Source of the DNA: an uncultured bacterium
GTDB taxonomy: Bacteria > Patescibacteriota > Minisyncoccia > Phycocordibacterales > CAIZLB01
Length of the DNA stretch: 64,000 bases
NCBI GenBank assembly: GCA_903848795.1
Contig: CAINHC010000001.1
Span: forward strand, 14,915 to 78,914
Reading direction: 5' to 3'
In this document: piece after piece, positions 15,984-43,572 of the stretch
How positions within the stretch are numbered: position 1 is the stretch's first letter
How the letters are laid out: every line of letters begins with the position of its first letter
The notes under the pieces: model-generated
Database searches by the model: none
Told to the model about the DNA's origin: nothing
What the model saw: only the letters and a program-made list of their open reading frames with translations
Position numbers and translations under genes: made by a program

Positions 15984-18059
15984 CTACTTCCCTAACACCC
16001 TATCCAAACTCATGTCATATTTTGAATCAGACTTTATTTGAGTATTTAGAGAGTATCCATTTGCGCTAACGACAGTGTTTGTAAAACTATCTGTTCCAGC
16101 AATCTTTTGGGAGTTAACGATAATCGGGGATTGATTAACTTGTGAGAGACTTGGTAAAAACTCAACTTGATAAGACATTTCCTTTGGATTAGAAATATAT
16201 CCAGTTCCTGGTGCAATGTCTCCAGCCTTCCAAGTGATTGTTCTATTAGCTGAATCGTACACAACAGTTGAACTAGCAGTTTCTGGTGAGACCTTACCCA
16301 ACCAATTAACATAAATTGGAAGTTTTGCAGTATAAATCAAACCCTTAACACTGTTGTATGAATTGCTAATTTTTACATTAACTGTATATGTTGTTTTAAC
16401 ATTTGCCTTGGTTGGCATTGGACCGGTGTTTGTGAATGGACCATCATAATAAAGCAAACCTGTATCCAGCCCGAGATCACTAACTATTCTAATCTTACGA
16501 GATGATTGTGATGTAACCTCTTCGGTAACCTTATTCTCATTCAATCGATTTCCTTTAACTGTAAAATTTAAAGTAATTTCAGGTCGTCTTATATTTGAAG
16601 CCAAGTCTTTTGTCAAATCAAAGATCTTCATATTGAAGTTCGAGGTTCCGCTTTTGTTTGGCGCTACATCTTCCATTTGAGGATCGTTACTCTTTTCCCA
16701 GTAGAGTGTATCGTTGTCAGACTTGTAAAATCCATTGGGGACCGCCACGCTATCTCTATCAACCATCAAACCAGAAAGTTTACCTTCAATGGAAACGTCG
16801 TGAATTGAAACATCGAGATTGTTTTTCCATAAAATTTCACCTTGCAATAATTGACCACTATTTGCAACAACAATTTCATCTCCACTTCCATTAACAGCGA
16901 CATCCGCACCCAAAAATGGTGCACTCAAATTAATTGTACTTATTGCTGAAGCAAAAGTTGTATCTATCTCATTGGGATTTTTATTCTGTGCAGTTCCTGC
17001 AAAAAATCTAACCGTTCGCTCTTGATTTGTTTGACCAAATATCTTTGCATTAATTTCAATCTTTTTAACCTCCCCTGGTGCAATATCCCCTAATCTCCAG
17101 TGATCAGTCGCCAAAGATGGATCTGGATCGGCAGAAACATAATCAAAGCCAAATGGGTATTCGGCACTAAGGACAACATCTTTAATAACATCAGCAGAGT
17201 TGGATTTAACAGATACTACAAATTTTGTAGCCTGCTCTGGAATAATTTCCTTCACAAAATCTACAGTGATTGAAACAGGCCCTGCCCCAATACCTATTGG
17301 ATAAGTCTTTTGCTTGGCGAATAAACTATTTGTCCCAGGAAGTTTGTATTCCAATGAAACGCTAATATTCTTTGTGGAACCTTCTTCGCCTAGGATAATA
17401 GACTTAACAGTCGTCCTTTGAGTTCCGCCAGCGGCTATAGTGCCGAGTGGAATTCTGTCAGTCACAAGACTTGTTACTTTATCATCTGCACGTCTTGTGC
17501 CGTCCGGATATGTCATTATCAAATCAACACCCTCCAATGCATCCGAATTGTTATTGAACACATTTACATCAAGCGACAATTCCTGTCCGGCGGAAATTAT
17601 AATTGGACCAGAAACACTGAGCTCAATATTGCTACCAGATATTATATTTGGGTTTATTGTAAAGTAGTAATAAGCGACCCCGGCGGCGATAATCAAGAAA
17701 ACAATAGAAAAGACTGTTAGACCTTTTAGAAAGGAGTATATTTTGGAGGCGTCGCTGTTTTTGTCGATGGACTTTGATTTTTCCGAAATTGCATTTCTAT
17801 TTGCCCTATTATCTAAATTGGAAACTGAAAAAGGGTCTTCTTTTTTCTTATTCTCTTCAATGGGTTCGCTATTCTTATTTCCTTCCTCATCATCCCAATC
17901 TCTATTTACAGAAACATGATGCTCATGCATTTTTACATGCTTCATCTTTGGCAAATCACCAGATGTAGAATCTAGTTTCTTTTTTAATTCCTCCATTTTT
18001 CCTTCGTCTTTCATGCGATAAATTATATCACCCTTTGGGTAATTAAGTACAATCACCAA
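15984..18059 (-). CDS. large cell-surface protein with beta-rich CARDB/DUF11-like repeats, hypothetical
   Basis: 691 aa. Charged N-terminus, one TM (VFSIVFLIIAAGVAYYYF), then an extracellular beta-rich region with repeated T-V-x-V-N-x-G patterns. No catalytic motif. Confidence 0.45.
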   Translation of the reverse strand: MVIVLNYPKGDIIYRMKDEGKMEELKKKLDSTSGDLPKMKHVKMHEHHVSVNRDWDDEEGNKNSEPIEENKKKEDPFSVSNLDNRANRNAISEKSKSIDKNSDASKIYSFLKGLTVFSIVFLIIAAGVAYYYFTINPNIISGSNIELSVSGPIIISAGQELSLDVNVFNNNSDALEGVDLIMTYPDGTRRADDKVTSLVTDRIPLGTIAAGGTQRTTVKSIILGEEGSTKNISVSLEYKLPGTNSLFAKQKTYPIGIGAGPVSITVDFVKEIIPEQATKFVVSVKSNSADVIKDVVLSAEYPFGFDYVSADPDPSLATDHWRLGDIAPGEVKKIEINAKIFGQTNQERTVRFFAGTAQNKNPNEIDTTFASAISTINLSAPFLGADVAVNGSGDEIVVANSGQLLQGEILWKNNLDVSIHDVSIEGKLSGLMVDRDSVAVPNGFYKSDNDTLYWEKSNDPQMEDVAPNKSGTSNFNMKIFDLTKDLASNIRRPEITLNFTVKGNRLNENKVTEEVTSQSSRKIRIVSDLGLDTGLLYYDGPFTNTGPMPTKANVKTTYTVNVKISNSYNSVKGLIYTAKLPIYVNWLGKVSPETASSTVVYDSANRTITWKAGDIAPGTGYISNPKEMSYQVEFLPSLSQVNQSPIIVNSQKIAGTDSFTNTVVSANGYSLNTQIKSDSKYDMSLDRVLGK

Positions 18060-18736: not shown

Positions 18737-21700
18737 TTATTTTACAGGTCTAATAATAAACCTTACCTCTTGATCACCCACAGATACAGCTTCCCCTCCC
18801 TCAAAATCCTGAAGGATTAGACTTTCAGCCAGCACAGTTTTAGAAATCATCTTGGAATATTTTTCTATCAACATCTTTCCAACATTCGAATCTTCAATTT
18901 CCAAAATTATTTTGTCTTGTGGAGAAAAACCAAATGCTTTTCTAGCTTCTTGAACAGCTCTAATTAAATCTCTGGACATTCCCTCTTCTTTCAAATCTTC
19001 AGTTAATGCAGTATCAAGTATAATTTCATTTCCAATAGCAACACTTTTTACATTCAACTCGTCTTTTATAATTTCTTCCAAATCCTTACTCAATGACTTA
19101 CCTTCCTTGTTATTGTAGATGAAGGATGCTAAAGGTTGTCTAACCTTCAATTGAGACTTAGCACGAAGTGACAATCCAGCTTCAACCAAAGCTCTTGCTG
19201 ATTCCATATTCGAAAGTAGTATTTCCTCCTTTTCAGAAAGCGCACCCAAATCTGGCCATTTTTCTAAGTGAACACTTAGCATTCCGTTCTCTGTATTTGC
19301 GGATGCATTTATTTGGTCACAATCGACAACTTTAACTTTCTGATACAAGTCTTCAGCAGAAAATGGCACAGCTGGTGCTATCAATTTTGAAAAATTTAAC
19401 AAAACAGCACGGAGGGTGGATATAGCAAAATCTCTATCAACAACATTGTCACCCTTGAATCTATCTCTAGATCTTCTTAAGTACCAAGTAGATAAATCAT
19501 CAATGAACGAAGCAATTGGTCGAATCGCTTTAGAAATCATATAAGCATCCAAATCTCTGGTCATATCAGAATTCAACTTTTTCAATCTTGCCCAAATCCA
19601 TTGATCTAGAACATTTTCAGATTTAAGTGAACAGAAGCTGTGCACGGAATCCTCCCCAGACATCTCTGAATATGTTTTATAGAATGTATAAACATTATCC
19701 AATCTATTAAATATTTTTTTATTAATCTCGTCCAGTGACTTTTCAGAAAAAGAGACTTCCTCTGCAGTTACCGCAGGAGAAGTAACAAGGAAATATCGAA
19801 GTGAGTCTGCACCATACTTCTCAACCACCCCCATTAACTCTGGATAGTTATTCAAGCTCTTCGCCATCTTTCTTCCATCTTCCGCCAAAATCAAACCGTT
19901 TACAGAAACATTTTTGAATGGAGACTTACCAAACAAGCTCACTCCCAAACATAGTAGCGAATAAAACCAACCACGAGTCTGATCTAGTCCCTCAGCAATA
20001 AAGTCAGCTGGAAATAGTTTACTATCAGCCTTTTCAAACTCTTCTTTGTTTTCAAATGGATAGTGTTGTGAGGCAAACGGCATAGATCCAGAATCGTACC
20101 AAACATCAAAGACATCGGGGATTCTTCTCATGATTTCTCCGTCCTCATTTTTCCAAGTAATGGAATCAATTAGCGGTCTGTGAATATCTAACTCAAAGTT
20201 TTCAGTATGAGGCCATTGCACAAAATCAATATAGTGAAGTGAGCCATTTGGATCGGATGCATCGTGCCATCCACTTCTAATCATGTCTCGTGTCGTTCTT
20301 CCATTAGCAACCTCCTTCATCATTCTAATTGGCAAACCGTGGGCGACAATAAGAATGTTCTCATCCTTGTTTACTGAATCTATTTCATACAAACACTCAG
20401 CTACACGTCTTTTAACTTCAGCAACAGACTCGCCTCCTGCAGGTTTTGCAAAAATTCTCTGATCTTCTGTTTTAAAATCTGCCAACCTTTCATCCCAAGA
20501 ACGACCCTCCAACTCTCCTCCGTCACACTCCCTGAGGCGTACATCATAAATTATTTTTGATTCCTCCAACCCAAGAGCTTCTGCAATAATCTTTGCAGAC
20601 TCTTTTGTTCTTCTAAAATCAGAAGCGTAGATTTTTGTTATTGCACGATTATTGCCACTAGCTACGACGTTTTCAGATACCCCACTATTCTTTAATTTAT
20701 CCGCAGATTCCTTAATTTGCGTAATCCCCTTTTCAGTTAAACCATAGAGATTCAAATCATGGGAATTTATAATACCCCTTACATTTGACTCGGCCTCTCC
20801 ATGTCGCATCAGAACATATTTATTATTATTTGAACCCTGCCTAATCTTTTCTTTCAGCTCTGCAAAAGATCCGATTATTTCTGTCTTACCACTTTCAGAT
20901 TTCCACATTGGAACAGGAGCACCCCAATATCTGGTCCTTGAAATTGCCCAGTCTCTTATGTTTTCCAACCACTCACCAAAACGGCCAGAGCCGATTTCTT
21001 TTGGCACCCAGTTTATTTTATTATTTTCTGTGATCAATTCGTTTTTCAAAGACGTAGTCCTTACAAATAAACTTGTTGTTGCAAAGTTTATAAGCGGAGT
21101 CTCGCATCTCCAACAATGAGGATACGAGTGAATCATCTTTTCTTTTGCAAGAAGAACTCCCTTACCCGCCAAGATTTTTATTATTTCAACATCCGCACTT
21201 TGATGATCCTCTTTTGGCTTTGCTGGCTTACCCTTCATTTCAGTTATTAAATCAACAAAACATCCATCAAATCCAACGTGCTTAATGACAGGAAGATTAT
21301 TAGCCTTAGATAGCTTCATATCATCATCCCCATAAGCTGGCGCGATATGTACAATTCCAGTTCCGTCTTCCGCTGTGACAAAAGCAGCGTCGCAAACCTT
21401 CCAAATATTTTGTCTATTCTTTTCAGACGTTTCTAGTGTCCCCTCTTTTTTATAATAGTCAAAAACAGGCTCGTATGAAATACCAACCAAATCTTTTCCA
21501 AGTAGTGGCTTATTAAAGTCTATTAAAGGAAACACGACACAATCCTCAGGAATTACCTTTTTATTTTTTAAAGTTTCCAAAAGACTTTCTGCAAAGATAT
21601 AATTTTCTGCGCTAACTACGCCATCCGCGCCAGCTGGCGCCTTAACAGAAACACAAACGTAATTCAATTCTGGGTTCACTGCAAGAGCTACGTTTCCAGG

Positions 21701-22570
21701 GAGTGTCCATGGGGTTGTTGTCCAGGCTACAAAAGATGTTTTGGAACCTGCCGTCGAACCGTCACCTAGATTATAAAAAGATTTAATAACGCCAAGCGAG
21801 TCTTCCTTGATTTCAAATTTTACAAAGACTGAAATATCAGCAATGTCCTTATAGCCCTGTGCCACCTCAAAGTTTGAAAGTGGAGTTCCACAACGAGGGC
21901 AAATTTGCATCACTTTGTAGTCTTCGAATACCAAACCCTTTTTATTCAACTCACTAAATGACCACCAAACAGACTCTGTGTAACTTGAGTCCATTGTTCT
22001 GTAGTCATTGTCCATATCAGACCACCTACCAATTCTTTGCATTCTATCTTTCCACTCTCCTGTGTATTCCAAAACACTTTCTCTTGCAGCATTGTTAAAT
22101 TTATCAATACCGTATTCTTCAATAGCTTTCTTATCCTTCAAGCCAAGCTTTTTTTCTATCAAGTTTTCAATAGGTAGACCGTGACAATCCCACCCCCACT
22201 TTCTATCAACATGAAATCCACGCATGGTTTTATATCTCGGCATTAAATCCTTTAGGGAATTTGGCAAAATATGTCCGTAGTGAGGAAGACCTGTTGCATA
22301 AGGAGGTCCATCATAAAATACGAATTCCCCAAATGGTGCGTCCTTTTTAAGAGTTTGTTCAAAAATATGATTCTCATTCCAGAAAGCAAGTACGGCTTTT
22401 TCTTTTGTTGAAATTGCACTAACCGCAGTATCTGTGGTACCCGTAGCGTTTGTAATGTTTGCGGAATTTGTGACACCAGCTTTTTTATTAGTCTCAGACT
22501 TAGTTTGAACGGGTAGCCCTACCCCGTTTTGGCTTTTATCTTCGGCCAAATCATTTTGTTTTGAAGTCAT
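18737..22570 (-). CDS. ileS: isoleucyl-tRNA synthetase carrying an inserted histidine-phosphatase (PGM-like) domain and N-terminal low-complexity extension
   Basis: PPYATGLPHYGH (HIGH), CP1 region, WAISRTRYWGAPVP, DVWYDSGSMPF, KMAKS. Between aa ~583-782 (nt ~20225-20824) sits a ~200-aa segment beginning NKYVLMRHGEAESN, the RHG catalytic motif of histidine phosphatase branch 1. Single uninterrupted ORF of 1277 aa. Confidence 0.9.
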   Translation of the reverse strand: MTSKQNDLAEDKSQNGVGLPVQTKSETNKKAGVTNSANITNATGTTDTAVSAISTKEKAVLAFWNENHIFEQTLKKDAPFGEFVFYDGPPYATGLPHYGHILPNSLKDLMPRYKTMRGFHVDRKWGWDCHGLPIENLIEKKLGLKDKKAIEEYGIDKFNNAARESVLEYTGEWKDRMQRIGRWSDMDNDYRTMDSSYTESVWWSFSELNKKGLVFEDYKVMQICPRCGTPLSNFEVAQGYKDIADISVFVKFEIKEDSLGVIKSFYNLGDGSTAGSKTSFVAWTTTPWTLPGNVALAVNPELNYVCVSVKAPAGADGVVSAENYIFAESLLETLKNKKVIPEDCVVFPLIDFNKPLLGKDLVGISYEPVFDYYKKEGTLETSEKNRQNIWKVCDAAFVTAEDGTGIVHIAPAYGDDDMKLSKANNLPVIKHVGFDGCFVDLITEMKGKPAKPKEDHQSADVEIIKILAGKGVLLAKEKMIHSYPHCWRCETPLINFATTSLFVRTTSLKNELITENNKINWVPKEIGSGRFGEWLENIRDWAISRTRYWGAPVPMWKSESGKTEIIGSFAELKEKIRQGSNNNKYVLMRHGEAESNVRGIINSHDLNLYGLTEKGITQIKESADKLKNSGVSENVVASGNNRAITKIYASDFRRTKESAKIIAEALGLEESKIIYDVRLRECDGGELEGRSWDERLADFKTEDQRIFAKPAGGESVAEVKRRVAECLYEIDSVNKDENILIVAHGLPIRMMKEVANGRTTRDMIRSGWHDASDPNGSLHYIDFVQWPHTENFELDIHRPLIDSITWKNEDGEIMRRIPDVFDVWYDSGSMPFASQHYPFENKEEFEKADSKLFPADFIAEGLDQTRGWFYSLLCLGVSLFGKSPFKNVSVNGLILAEDGRKMAKSLNNYPELMGVVEKYGADSLRYFLVTSPAVTAEEVSFSEKSLDEINKKIFNRLDNVYTFYKTYSEMSGEDSVHSFCSLKSENVLDQWIWARLKKLNSDMTRDLDAYMISKAIRPIASFIDDLSTWYLRRSRDRFKGDNVVDRDFAISTLRAVLLNFSKLIAPAVPFSAEDLYQKVKVVDCDQINASANTENGMLSVHLEKWPDLGALSEKEEILLSNMESARALVEAGLSLRAKSQLKVRQPLASFIYNNKEGKSLSKDLEEIIKDELNVKSVAIGNEIILDTALTEDLKEEGMSRDLIRAVQEARKAFGFSPQDKIILEIEDSNVGKMLIEKYSKMISKTVLAESLILQDFEGGEAVSVGDQEVRFIIRPVK

Positions 22571-22613: not shown

Positions 22614-22958
22614 TTACAAATGGTGGGCCTGCAAATATAAACAGATTTTGTTTTGGGCATCATGGATACTGCCGTTGATAGTTTTCCAGACCATTTTAAT
22701 ATCTATACTGAAATAGTCATGAGAAACTATATCTCTTAATCCCGTTATTTTCTTCCAAGGTATTTCAATTTCAGACAAAACGTCTTCCGGAATTCTTTTT
22801 GCTAATTCTCCAATTATTTGCAATTGCATAAGTACGGCGCTTTGAGTTTTTGAATCAATAGAAAATGAATCATAATCTAAACCTTCAATATATAGACCTA
22901 TTTTATTCATAGCCCCTAAAATAAGTTTTAAATAAGCTAGACTATCCTTGTTTTTCAT
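22614..22958 (-). CDS. hepT: HepT-like (DUF86) nucleotidyltransferase-substrate-binding toxin
   Basis: Rx4HxY motif (RDIVSHDY). ~114 aa. Overlaps the upstream MNT gene by 17 nt. Confidence 0.75.
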   Translation of the reverse strand: MKNKDSLAYLKLILGAMNKIGLYIEGLDYDSFSIDSKTQSAVLMQLQIIGELAKRIPEDVLSEIEIPWKKITGLRDIVSHDYFSIDIKMVWKTINGSIHDAQNKICLYLQAHHL

Positions 22959-23250
22959 CTTTATATAGAGGAATTAGATCTTTATAAATATAATCATGAA
23001 AATGAGAAATTACAGCGTCCTCGGACACCAAATCAACCTTTTTAGATAAAACCGCTTCTAATTTTTCTCTCAAATCAAAGAAATCTAATAGATCTATAGG
23101 TTTAGATATTTTAATCAAAATATCTACGTCACTTTCTGTATTATTATCTCCCCTAGCAAAACTACCAAACAAAGATGCACGCAAAACAAACTCCTGTTCC
23201 TTTAAGATTGGAGTGATTTTGTCTTTAATGTTTTGTATTTCATCTGTCAT
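22942..23250 (-). CDS. mntA: MntA-type minimal nucleotidyltransferase antitoxin
   Basis: LFGSFARGDNNTESDVDILI (GS…DxD NTase motif). Start moved to internal Met (MTDEIQNIK), because the first 20 codons of the ORF-track call are encoded by tandem direct repeats. Confidence 0.7.
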   Translation of the reverse strand: MTDEIQNIKDKITPILKEQEFVLRASLFGSFARGDNNTESDVDILIKISKPIDLLDFFDLREKLEAVLSKKVDLVSEDAVISHFHDYIYKDLIPLYKDEKQG

Positions 23251-23266
23251 GGTGAGATTATAGCAC

Positions 23267-23343
23267 CCGGTGGACGATTCTCCAAAATCGTCGTTTGGAC
23301 GATTCTCCAAAATCGCCCAGTAGGTGATTCACCAGAATCATCG
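23267..23343. repeat. tandem and palindromic GATTC-N-GAATC-type repeats upstream of mntA-hepT
   Basis: ggaCGATTCTCCAAAATCG occurs twice 26 bp apart, followed by GGTGATTCACCAGAATCA palindrome. Homologous ~100-bp block at 33229-33335. Confidence 0.6.
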
Positions 23344-43401: not shown

Positions 43402-43489
43402 GACTACATTATATACCCATTATGAATGATGTCAATATAATATACATGCTCATTGTACATAAAACTTACAATCGTAAATATATTCCAAG

Positions 43490-43572
43490 TGCGCGAGAGA
43501 GGATTTGAACCTCCACGCCCTTACGGGCACTACCACCTCAAGGTAGCGAGTCTACCGTTTCTCCACCCGCGC
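43490..43572 (-). tRNA. tRNA-Leu (GAG), long variable arm
   Basis: Acceptor GCGCGGG/CTCGCGC, anticodon arm CTACC-TTGAGGT-GGTAG, variable arm TGCCCGTAAGGGCGT, T-arm GGAGG-TTCAAAT-CCTCT. Confidence 0.8.

Follow-up and report, generated by a model that had tools for sequence, protein, structure and literature searches.

A phosphatase nested in an isoleucyl-tRNA synthetase

We analyzed a 64,000-nucleotide stretch of contig CAINHC010000001.1 (hereafter, the window) from an uncultured member of the Patescibacteriota, and focused on its single ileS gene, which encodes isoleucyl-tRNA synthetase (IleRS). The gene is a minus-strand open reading frame (ORF) at 18737-22570, encoding 1277 amino acids (aa). 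The ORF itself, the TIGR00392 model and the relatives found in the PDB identify its product as a type-2 (eukaryote/archaea-like) IleRS with a nested phosphatase. All parts of the gene described below lie on the same strand.

An initial annotation of the window, made from the DNA letters alone, had described a 1277-aa ileS ORF collinear with IleRS and carrying HYGH, DVWYDSG and KMAKS motifs. We recovered all of these landmarks in order: HYGH at aa 97-100, WAISRTRYWGAPVP at 541-554, DVWYDSG at 822-828, and KMAKS at 901-905. The protein scored 855.4 bits against the TIGR00392 ileS equivalog of NCBIfam (cut-off 621.4), which places it among the IleRSs. Its best PDB matches were the human, Thermus thermophilus and yeast enzymes, at ~1e-200, compared with 3e-78 for the type-1 enzyme of Staphylococcus aureus. 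The NCBIfam models for MupA and MupB gave high partial scores, under their exception cut-offs. Together with this affinity to the eukaryotic, Thermus and MupA/MupB enzymes, a DUF5915-type C-terminus (E=9.5e-20), the domain that type-2 IleRSs typically have where bacterial ones bind zinc, assigns the protein to the mupirocin-insensitive type 2.

The catalytic and tRNA-binding elements are well preserved. The HYGH (HIGH) class I signature (22271-22282) belongs to a P-H-x-G-H motif that is invariant in 66 fused homologues, as is K-M-x-K in the KMAKS (KMSKS) signature (19856-19870). The CP1 editing domain (approximately aa 241-500; 21071-21850) has intact WTTTPWTLPGN and GTGIVH motifs, and its residues W228-T234 and G348/G350/V352/H353 (alignment numbering) do not vary across the same 66 sequences. 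In the nucleotide-binding motif DVWYDSG (20087-20107), D822 and W824 are conserved in 100% of 120 fused sequences. Pfam further delineates the anticodon-binding domain (Anticodon_1; aa 989-1148; 19127-19606) and the DUF5915 domain (aa 1183-1274; 18749-19024). Judged by its motifs, the window gene encodes a type-2 IleRS that lacks none of the expected parts, as the HIGH, KMSKS, editing and anticodon-binding elements are all intact. We also recovered the N-terminal extension of ~55 low-complexity residues mentioned in the initial annotation (aa 1-55; 22406-22570). It is rich in Thr, Asn and Lys and probably disordered, and its length varies among close relatives, whose extensions share the start MTSKQNDLAEDK and measure 30-60 aa, compared with ~20 aa in more distant fused homologues.

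The insert resembles small branch-1 histidine phosphatases

The interval 20225-20824 corresponds exactly to aa 583-782 and starts with NKYVLMRHGEAESNVRG. The initial annotation had read it as a branch-1 histidine phosphatase, with a phosphoglycerate mutase-like RHG motif, placed in frame inside IleRS, and profile searches bear this out. In the whole protein, the Pfam family His_Phos_1 (PF00300) matched aa 586-769 with E=1.5e-30 and 106.8 bits, far above the gathering threshold of 21.7, covering profile positions 2-172 of 194; the 200-aa segment alone gave E=8.9e-33. The match is nested between two pieces of tRNA-synt_1, with Anticodon_1 and DUF5915 following. Taking Pfam, AlphaFold2 (AF2) and Foldseek together, the domain spans aa ~580-786 (20213-20833).

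The catalytic residues expected of the family could be located individually. LMRHGE at aa 587-592 supplies the RHG motif, whose phosphate-binding arginine and nucleophilic histidine (R589-H590; 20801-20806) are retained in 100% of the 120 divergent fused sequences. The second active-site histidine (H744, in VAHG; 20339-20341) is likewise retained in 100%, and the second active-site arginine (R654; 20609-20611) in 99%. E681 (20528-20530), the candidate proton donor assigned by alignment, is found in 94% of these sequences. In two further alignments, R654, E681 and H744 are invariant. In the GGES...R region, E714 is conserved in 100% and R722 in 98%. A degenerate active site was found in none of the lineages sampled by the 120 sequences, and the mean pairwise identity of the insert across sampled sequences is only 30%.

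Structure prediction agrees with this assignment. AF2, run on a 74-sequence alignment, modelled the insert with a pLDDT of 94.5 and a pTM of 0.92. A longer model of 1195 residues (aa 56-1250, leaving out the N-terminal extension) reached a pLDDT of 85.2 and a pTM of 0.75; its IleRS core is intact, and pLDDT is ~90 at the two junctions. In these predictions, the insert thus forms a His_Phos_1 domain of its own, and the synthetase around it is intact. Its sole soft part is a lineage-specific loop at aa ~632-641 (SGVSENVVAS; 20648-20677), which is missing from most homologues and has a pLDDT of 63 in the insert model and below 50 in the longer one. A Foldseek search against the PDB returned more than 290 chains of branch-1 histidine phosphatases at probability 1.00, among them TIGAR, Hydrogenobacter PspA, mycobacterial hydrolases, Rv2419c (GpgP), PhoE and CobC, with TM-scores of 0.6-0.76 and identities of 19-28%. 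Phosphatases of ~200 aa matched the insert better than the longer cofactor-dependent mutases.

Sequence models for individual specificities scored much lower. Cofactor-dependent phosphoglycerate mutases (dPGM; NF038349, TIGR01258, PRK14115 and others) measure ~230-250 aa and have a C-terminal tail. The insert, ~200 aa long, obtained 85 bits against dPGM_arch (cut-off 225) and 26.5 against pgm_1 (cut-off 81.7), and it therefore falls outside the dPGM families; with 78 bits against 162.9, it is not a member of the CobC family (TIGR03162) either. No cobalamin gene context adjoined ileS in the window or in the 80 related loci described below. The NCBIfam match to SixA was weak (E=1.9e-5). We therefore rejected assigning a substrate by homology, as dPGM, CobC, GpmB, PspA and SixA all score far under their NCBIfam cut-offs and the Foldseek matches are generic. 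Overall, we infer that the insert is not a mutase but an active phosphomonoesterase, monomeric and of the small PhoE/PspA/CobC/TIGAR type, which would work through a phospho-histidine at H590.

The phosphatase occupies the tip of the CP3 subdomain

To place the insertion, we aligned the protein with solved IleRS structures. Window aa 57-575 correspond to residues 14-479 of T. thermophilus IleRS and aa 794-1139 to residues 488-819; the human enzyme agrees, with window position 574 matching 490 and 795 matching 498. Hence, ~218 residues of the window protein occupy the place of ~8 residues in canonical IleRSs. The insert proper accounts for ~207 of them and replaces a CP3 loop of ~8 residues.

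The CP3 subdomain is thereby split. Its first half (aa 551-579; 20834-20920) is a beta-hairpin plus helix, and its second half (aa 787-821; 20108-20212) begins with WPHTENFELDIHRPLID. Published CP3 boundaries in the yeast and Candida enzymes (Sc 459-526, Ca 473-534; PMC7191050) put the insertion point inside this subdomain, a peripheral element that joins CP2 to the second half of the Rossmann fold and whose topology differs among the Candida, Thermus and Staphylococcus enzymes, with zinc bound only in some (PMC7191050). In the window protein, the CP3 zinc knuckle has neither of its cysteine pairs; KSES (in MWKSESGK) stands in place of the first and KNED (in WKNEDGE) in place of the second. 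Both pairs are retained in 55 of the 120 fused homologues; on this comparison, zinc binding by CP3 is dispensable once the phosphatase is present. Immediately before CP3 lies the CP2-CP3 linker RDWAISRTRYWG (aa 539-550; 20921-20956); in yeast IleRS, the equivalent linker ARDWNVSRNRYWG lines a pocket for the tRNA 3' end (A76) and reveromycin A (PMC7955072). According to these alignments, the phosphatase is inserted at the tip of the variable, solvent-exposed CP3, near the acceptor-end pocket in sequence.

This location bears on the possibility that the insert is a regulatory module. Its phosphate pocket could sense a phosphorylated metabolite, or it could be a protein phosphatase acting on IleRS or a partner, such that aminoacylation would be tuned to the metabolic state or an attack by a kinase toxin reversed. 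The histidine phosphatase superfamily does include protein phosphatases (PGAM5, Sts-1, SixA), and the weak SixA match fits with this. The rigid, confidently modelled junctions would be compatible with allosteric coupling, and CP3 of human IleRS is a protein-protein docking surface (PMC13439101). Nothing found supports the idea specifically: the best matches of the insert are small-molecule phosphatases, and no conserved kinase partner occurs in the neighborhood of ileS across the 80 loci. We consider a regulatory role the least probable of the biological explanations discussed here.

The fusion is widespread and under purifying selection

To determine how far the fused architecture extends, we searched 1.84 billion cluster representatives with HMMER, using the insert together with both IleRS flanks. 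At E <= 1e-30, 167 representatives, each from a distinct 50%-identity cluster, were recovered. The insert was present in all of the best 150 of these 167, and 119 had flank, insert and flank in a single stretch. Full-length fused members range from 1056 to 1561 aa (median 1173). Similarly, a word-indexed search with the full-length protein detected both PF00133 and PF00300 in 118 of the 119 homologues listed (the window's own protein excluded); a corresponding search with the insert only gave 4 matches.

We also scanned genomes, one per GTDB species, using a 6-sequence alignment as the query, and kept 80 loci for inspection. At least 477 matches were confirmed in these species-representative genomes, so that IleRS orthologues with the same insertion, which the initial annotation had suggested looking for, are numerous. 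The titles of the 80 loci include Kaiser-, Taylor-, Yonath-, Zambryski-, Vogel-, Lloyd- and Nomurabacteria, Paceibacterota/Paceibacteria, Parcubacteria, Minisyncoccia and the Patescibacteria group, as well as many labelled "uncultured Candidatus Saccharibacteria". In most of them (54-64 of 80), the order argS-ileS-recO-large protein is kept. The fused architecture is clade-wide in the Patescibacteria/Parcubacteria (Paceibacteria), spanning hundreds of species, and the insertion is a class-level trait of the Parcubacteria/Paceibacteria rather than a peculiarity of one gene.

These data also answer the concern, raised in the initial annotation, that the fusion might be an assembly error. At least 15 contigs, assembled independently from various samples and by various assemblers (ENA, Logan and two metagenome-assembled genomes at NCBI), encode exactly the same 1277-aa protein, and five independently assembled copies of the gene differ from that of the window at 0-1 nucleotides. 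In 78 of the 80 related loci, the N-terminal IleRS part, the phosphatase and the C-terminal IleRS part lie in one uninterrupted frame, and the remaining two end at contig edges. GC content runs across the insert without a break (0.39-0.41). We accordingly rejected a chimeric assembly or frameshift, as far as sequence data can decide this. An artefact in the wider sense, which would include an unrecognized frameshift, a decaying pseudogene or a selfish insertion, has a negligible probability given these observations, the confident predicted fold and the low ratio of nonsynonymous to synonymous substitutions (dN/dS).

In a comparison with L006, the closest species (84% identity), the insert gave a dN/dS of 0.06 and the IleRS parts one of 0.05; these values are approximate because dS is near saturation. 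Region by region, the insert has diverged about as much as the anticodon-binding and C-terminal domains. These comparisons indicate that the insert and IleRS are under equally strong purifying selection. The conservation of the catalytic residues, the low dN/dS and the invariant IleRS motifs make both enzymes look functional.

Accessory enzymes on and around related synthetases

Some fused relatives carry further domains on the same scaffold. One (P0155) has a NUDIX domain, and GNAT acetyltransferases occur at three different positions, two in P0181 and one at the C-terminus of P0089. P0166 contains a Walker-A kinase-like segment with weak matches to APS kinase, shikimate kinase and Pnkp1 (E~0.02). 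Five others (P0101, P0117, P0157, P0174 and P0178) have 2-4 tandem copies of His_Phos_1 within IleRS, and one extra copy among the fused relatives is placed between the catalytic and anticodon-binding domains. Outside ileS, no other His_Phos_1 gene was found in the window or in the 80 fused loci.

P0256 (2230 aa) apparently joins two IleRSs in tandem within one ORF. Its second copy is rich in Ala, Arg and Gly and has no phosphatase insert. This copy looks derived from a high-GC organism, and the ORF is possibly a chimeric contig or gene call.

Relatives that lack the insert provide a second view. In one locus (L087, 5865-12251; also L088 and L089; CAZOFS010000011.1), the gene order is argS - membrane protein - His_Phos_1 - AOX-like - HIT - ileS - NUDIX - recO, and the HIT, ileS, NUDIX and recO genes abut or overlap. 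The insert-less IleRS, at 1001 aa, shares 48% identity with the window enzyme and retains the zinc knuckle of CP3. The similarity of the HIT protein to ATP adenylyltransferase of the Ap4A phosphorylase type is weak; the NUDIX protein resembles NudE/AdpP. The phosphatase between argS and this ileS (P0032) is among the closest stand-alone relatives of the insert. Another locus (L096) has the order argS-phosphatase-AOX-like-small membrane protein-ileS, with a 56% identical phosphatase. Among the other stand-alone proteins, P0034 is a genuine CobC, located in a cobD-cobT-cobS operon. P0027 (L086, 2567-3349), also a close stand-alone relative of the insert, lies beside a methyltransferase gene and two genes upstream of a gene with a helix-turn-helix and a SocA_Panacea (antitoxin-type) domain; the 4.6-kb L086 contig has no ileS.

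The neighborhood of the insertion site and the added domains of the relatives raise the possibility of tRNA-end repair. The phosphatase would then remove a blocking 3'- (or 2'-) phosphate, left by RNase cleavage or by partial removal of a toxin-added 3'-pyrophosphate, and restore a chargeable A76 on the synthetase itself, which would give IleRS a third catalytic site. In favor of this, the CP3 subdomain that holds the insert comes straight after the CP2-3 linker, which is part of the A76 pocket (PMC7955072). Blocking of the CCA 3'-OH by a toxin-added pyrophosphate, reversed by hydrolases, is an established mechanism of conflict (Kurata et al. preprint). Beside the phosphatase, some relatives have a NUDIX pyrophosphohydrolase or a kinase-like domain with a Walker-A motif. 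Against this stand the marginal E-value of the kinase-like match and the lack of a basic charge on the insert, whose net charge has a median of -1 in the family and is -4 (pI 5.8) in the window. An enzyme carried by IleRS only would also repair a single tRNA family, and we know of no branch-1 histidine phosphatase that acts on RNA ends. We thus regard tRNA-end repair as improbable, if slightly less so than a regulatory role.

A possible link between the phosphatase and isoleucylation

Since the synthetic and editing motifs of IleRS are intact, the protein is most likely bifunctional, and we are fairly confident that its insert acts as a phosphomonoesterase. What this activity is for can be stated only tentatively. 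The reading we favor, at clearly less than even chances, ties the phosphatase functionally to the synthetase and makes it one tool of a house-cleaning or defense kit. In such a scheme, the insert would strip a terminal phosphate from a nucleotide-type small molecule made or bound at the synthetic site. It would be one of several recurring house-cleaning or detoxifying modules (NUDIX, HIT, GNAT and kinase-like) fused to IleRS or encoded beside it. The initial annotation had suggested a phosphatase for an aminoacyl-adenylate, a nucleotide or an alarmone, or else a regulatory module. Canonical histidine phosphatases act on terminal phosphomonoesters and not on the internal linkages of adenylate mimics, so an aminoacyl-adenylate is an unlikely substrate.

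Two observations hint at such coupling: the NUDIX, GNAT, P-loop and tandem phosphatase domains that relatives carry on the same IleRS scaffold, and the HIT-ileS-NUDIX-recO operon of the insert-less relative, with its stand-alone His_Phos_1 gene between argS and ileS. There is a functional parallel in MccE2 (GNAT) and MccH (HIT), accessory enzymes that detoxify aminoacyl-nucleotides targeting aminoacyl-tRNA synthetases (PMC8323819) and belong to families found on or near the IleRSs of relatives. In the known systems, they are separate from the synthetase under attack, unlike the phosphatase of the window; no role is known there for histidine phosphatases, and the chemistry differs. A narrower version, which we consider unlikely though more probable than tRNA-end repair alone, is that the nested phosphatase forms a third catalytic site for the synthetase's own substrates or products, either a blocked tRNA end or a phosphorylated nucleotide inhibitor or by-product. 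If so, Parcubacteria would have built substrate repair or self-defense into the synthetase, with NUDIX, GNAT, HIT and kinase-like domains belonging to the same toolkit.

Several points weigh against coupling. GNAT, NUDIX and His_Phos domains are among the commonest small enzyme families, and P0089 also carries an in-frame remnant of an IS200-type Y1 transposase; taken together, the accretions may only reflect a scaffold that tolerates insertions. The HIT, NUDIX and AOX neighbors of ileS were found in none of the 80 fused loci. When the origin of the insert was compared by profile scores and a bootstrapped neighbor-joining tree, the stand-alone phosphatases linked to ileS were not measurably closer to it than CobC or other stand-alone proteins; the stand-alone gene may be either a precursor of the insert or a product of fission. 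Chemistry restricted to terminal phosphomonoesters makes cleavage of adenylate mimics, as performed by MccH, impossible for the insert, and with all NCBIfam equivalogs far under their cut-offs, no specificity can be transferred to it. Finally, a basic charge, looked for as a sign of tRNA binding, was not seen in the insert family.

Nearly as likely as coupling is a hitch-hiking metabolic enzyme, namely an active phosphatase or mutase whose job is unrelated to isoleucylation. An essential and constitutively expressed gene of a streamlined genome would have taken it up in a tolerant surface loop, where it would have persisted because its activity is needed and excision without harming ileS is difficult. 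The peripheral position of CP3 and its structural variability among IleRSs (PMC7191050) agree with this, as do the loss of the zinc knuckle in half of the family and a scaffold that tolerates unrelated inserts, including the transposase remnant. The best family matches are generic metabolic phosphatases, and no second His_Phos_1 gene was found in the window or the fused loci. There is also a precedent in a reduced genome, the methionyl-tRNA synthetase (MetRS)-aminotransferase fusion of M. penetrans (PMC13215547). Conversely, the catalytic histidines are kept in 100% of sequences across a very deep and metabolically patchy clade, a pattern that a link between the activity and a universal process would explain more easily. 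The recurrent, independent association of IleRS with nucleotide-acting enzymes and the tandem duplication of the phosphatase within IleRS in some lineages also argue against a hitch-hiker. A neutral domain-hosting explanation of the fused IleRS is nonetheless plausible.

Comparison with known fusions and significance

Compared with type-2 IleRSs of known structure (T. thermophilus 1ILE, yeast 7D5C, C. albicans 6LDK and P. megaterium IleRS2 8C8U), the window protein is collinear over its full length and shares the HIGH and KMSKS signatures, the CP1 editing motifs, the CP2-3 linker, and the anticodon-binding and DUF5915 domains. Unlike these references, it has ~207 extra residues in CP3 that constitute a second enzyme, no zinc cysteines in CP3, and a low-complexity N-terminal tail. 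With the small branch-1 phosphatases PspA (4IJ5/4IJ6), PhoE (1H2E/1EBB), Rv2419c (4PZ9), TIGAR (3DCY) and CobC (6NRU), the insert shares the fold, a size of ~200 aa and the RHG...R...E...H catalytic set. It differs from them in its low identity (19-28%), in having both termini joined into IleRS, and in being presumably monomeric.

Other fusions resemble the window protein in part. The NCBIfam family NF040702 (ileS_w_GNAT) likewise combines IleRS with an extra enzyme that modifies small molecules, and GNAT domains also occur in relatives of the window protein. The accessory enzyme of the window protein is a different one, without GNAT, and a score of 317.7 bits against a cut-off of 1999 places it outside that family. 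In the Rv2228c-type RNase H/CobC-like acid phosphatase (NF005567), His_Phos_1 is joined to an enzyme that processes nucleic acids; the insert scores 70 bits (cut-off 326), and its fusion is nested rather than end-to-end and involves another partner enzyme. The M. penetrans MetRS-aminotransferase (PMC13215547) is likewise a class I aminoacyl-tRNA synthetase with a complete metabolic enzyme, and the functional connection is unclear. That fusion is an N-terminal appendage in a dimeric protein of one species, whereas the type seen in the window is nested in the catalytic domain and class-wide.

Aminoacyl-tRNA synthetases are among the most conserved enzymes, and bacterial ones rarely carry a complete second enzyme. 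Appended domains as such are already known from synthetases, as in IleRS-GNAT, the M. penetrans fusion and eukaryotic accretions. Full-text searches and several papers on IleRS architecture and evolution, among them the AARS Online paper and a 2026 preprint about how IleRS domains evolved, gave no description of an IleRS-phosphatase fusion. Public protein names are also silent on it ("isoleucyl-tRNA synthetase" at JGI, "class I tRNA ligase family protein" at NCBI). A complete second enzyme that is nested in the catalytic domain of a class I synthetase and fixed throughout a bacterial class thus appears to be undescribed.

If the phosphatase works with the synthetase, it would represent a new layer of translation quality control, repair, or defense against antibiotics or toxins, and would open a biochemical way into the Parcubacteria, which are uncultivated and poorly understood. 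As an independent enzyme, it would offer a clean natural case of "domain hosting" during genome streamlining. It would then also be a warning to read metabolic reconstructions with care, as phosphoglycerate mutase or phosphatase calls based on PF00300 may be counting ileS. In either case, the nested architecture marks the clade sharply for phylogenetic purposes, and annotation pipelines could give such proteins a name.

Other features of the window

Between argS and ileS, the window encodes a HepT-like HEPN toxin (114 aa; 22614-22958, minus strand) and an MNT-type nucleotidyltransferase antitoxin (122 aa; 22942-23310, minus strand), which overlap by 17 nucleotides. We considered this pair as a functional partner of ileS and rejected it, as it is missing from all 80 related loci; this absence points to a recent insertion into the argS-ileS gap. 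Downstream of recO, at 15984-18059 on the minus strand, lies a gene whose 691-aa product has a transmembrane segment at its N-terminus and matches the CLIPPER domain weakly; the synteny of this gene is kept in 62 of the 80 related loci. Finally, ARAGORN detected seven tRNA genes in the window; Rfam at its gathering threshold detected six, missing the long-arm tRNA-Leu(GAG) at 43489-43572 (minus strand).

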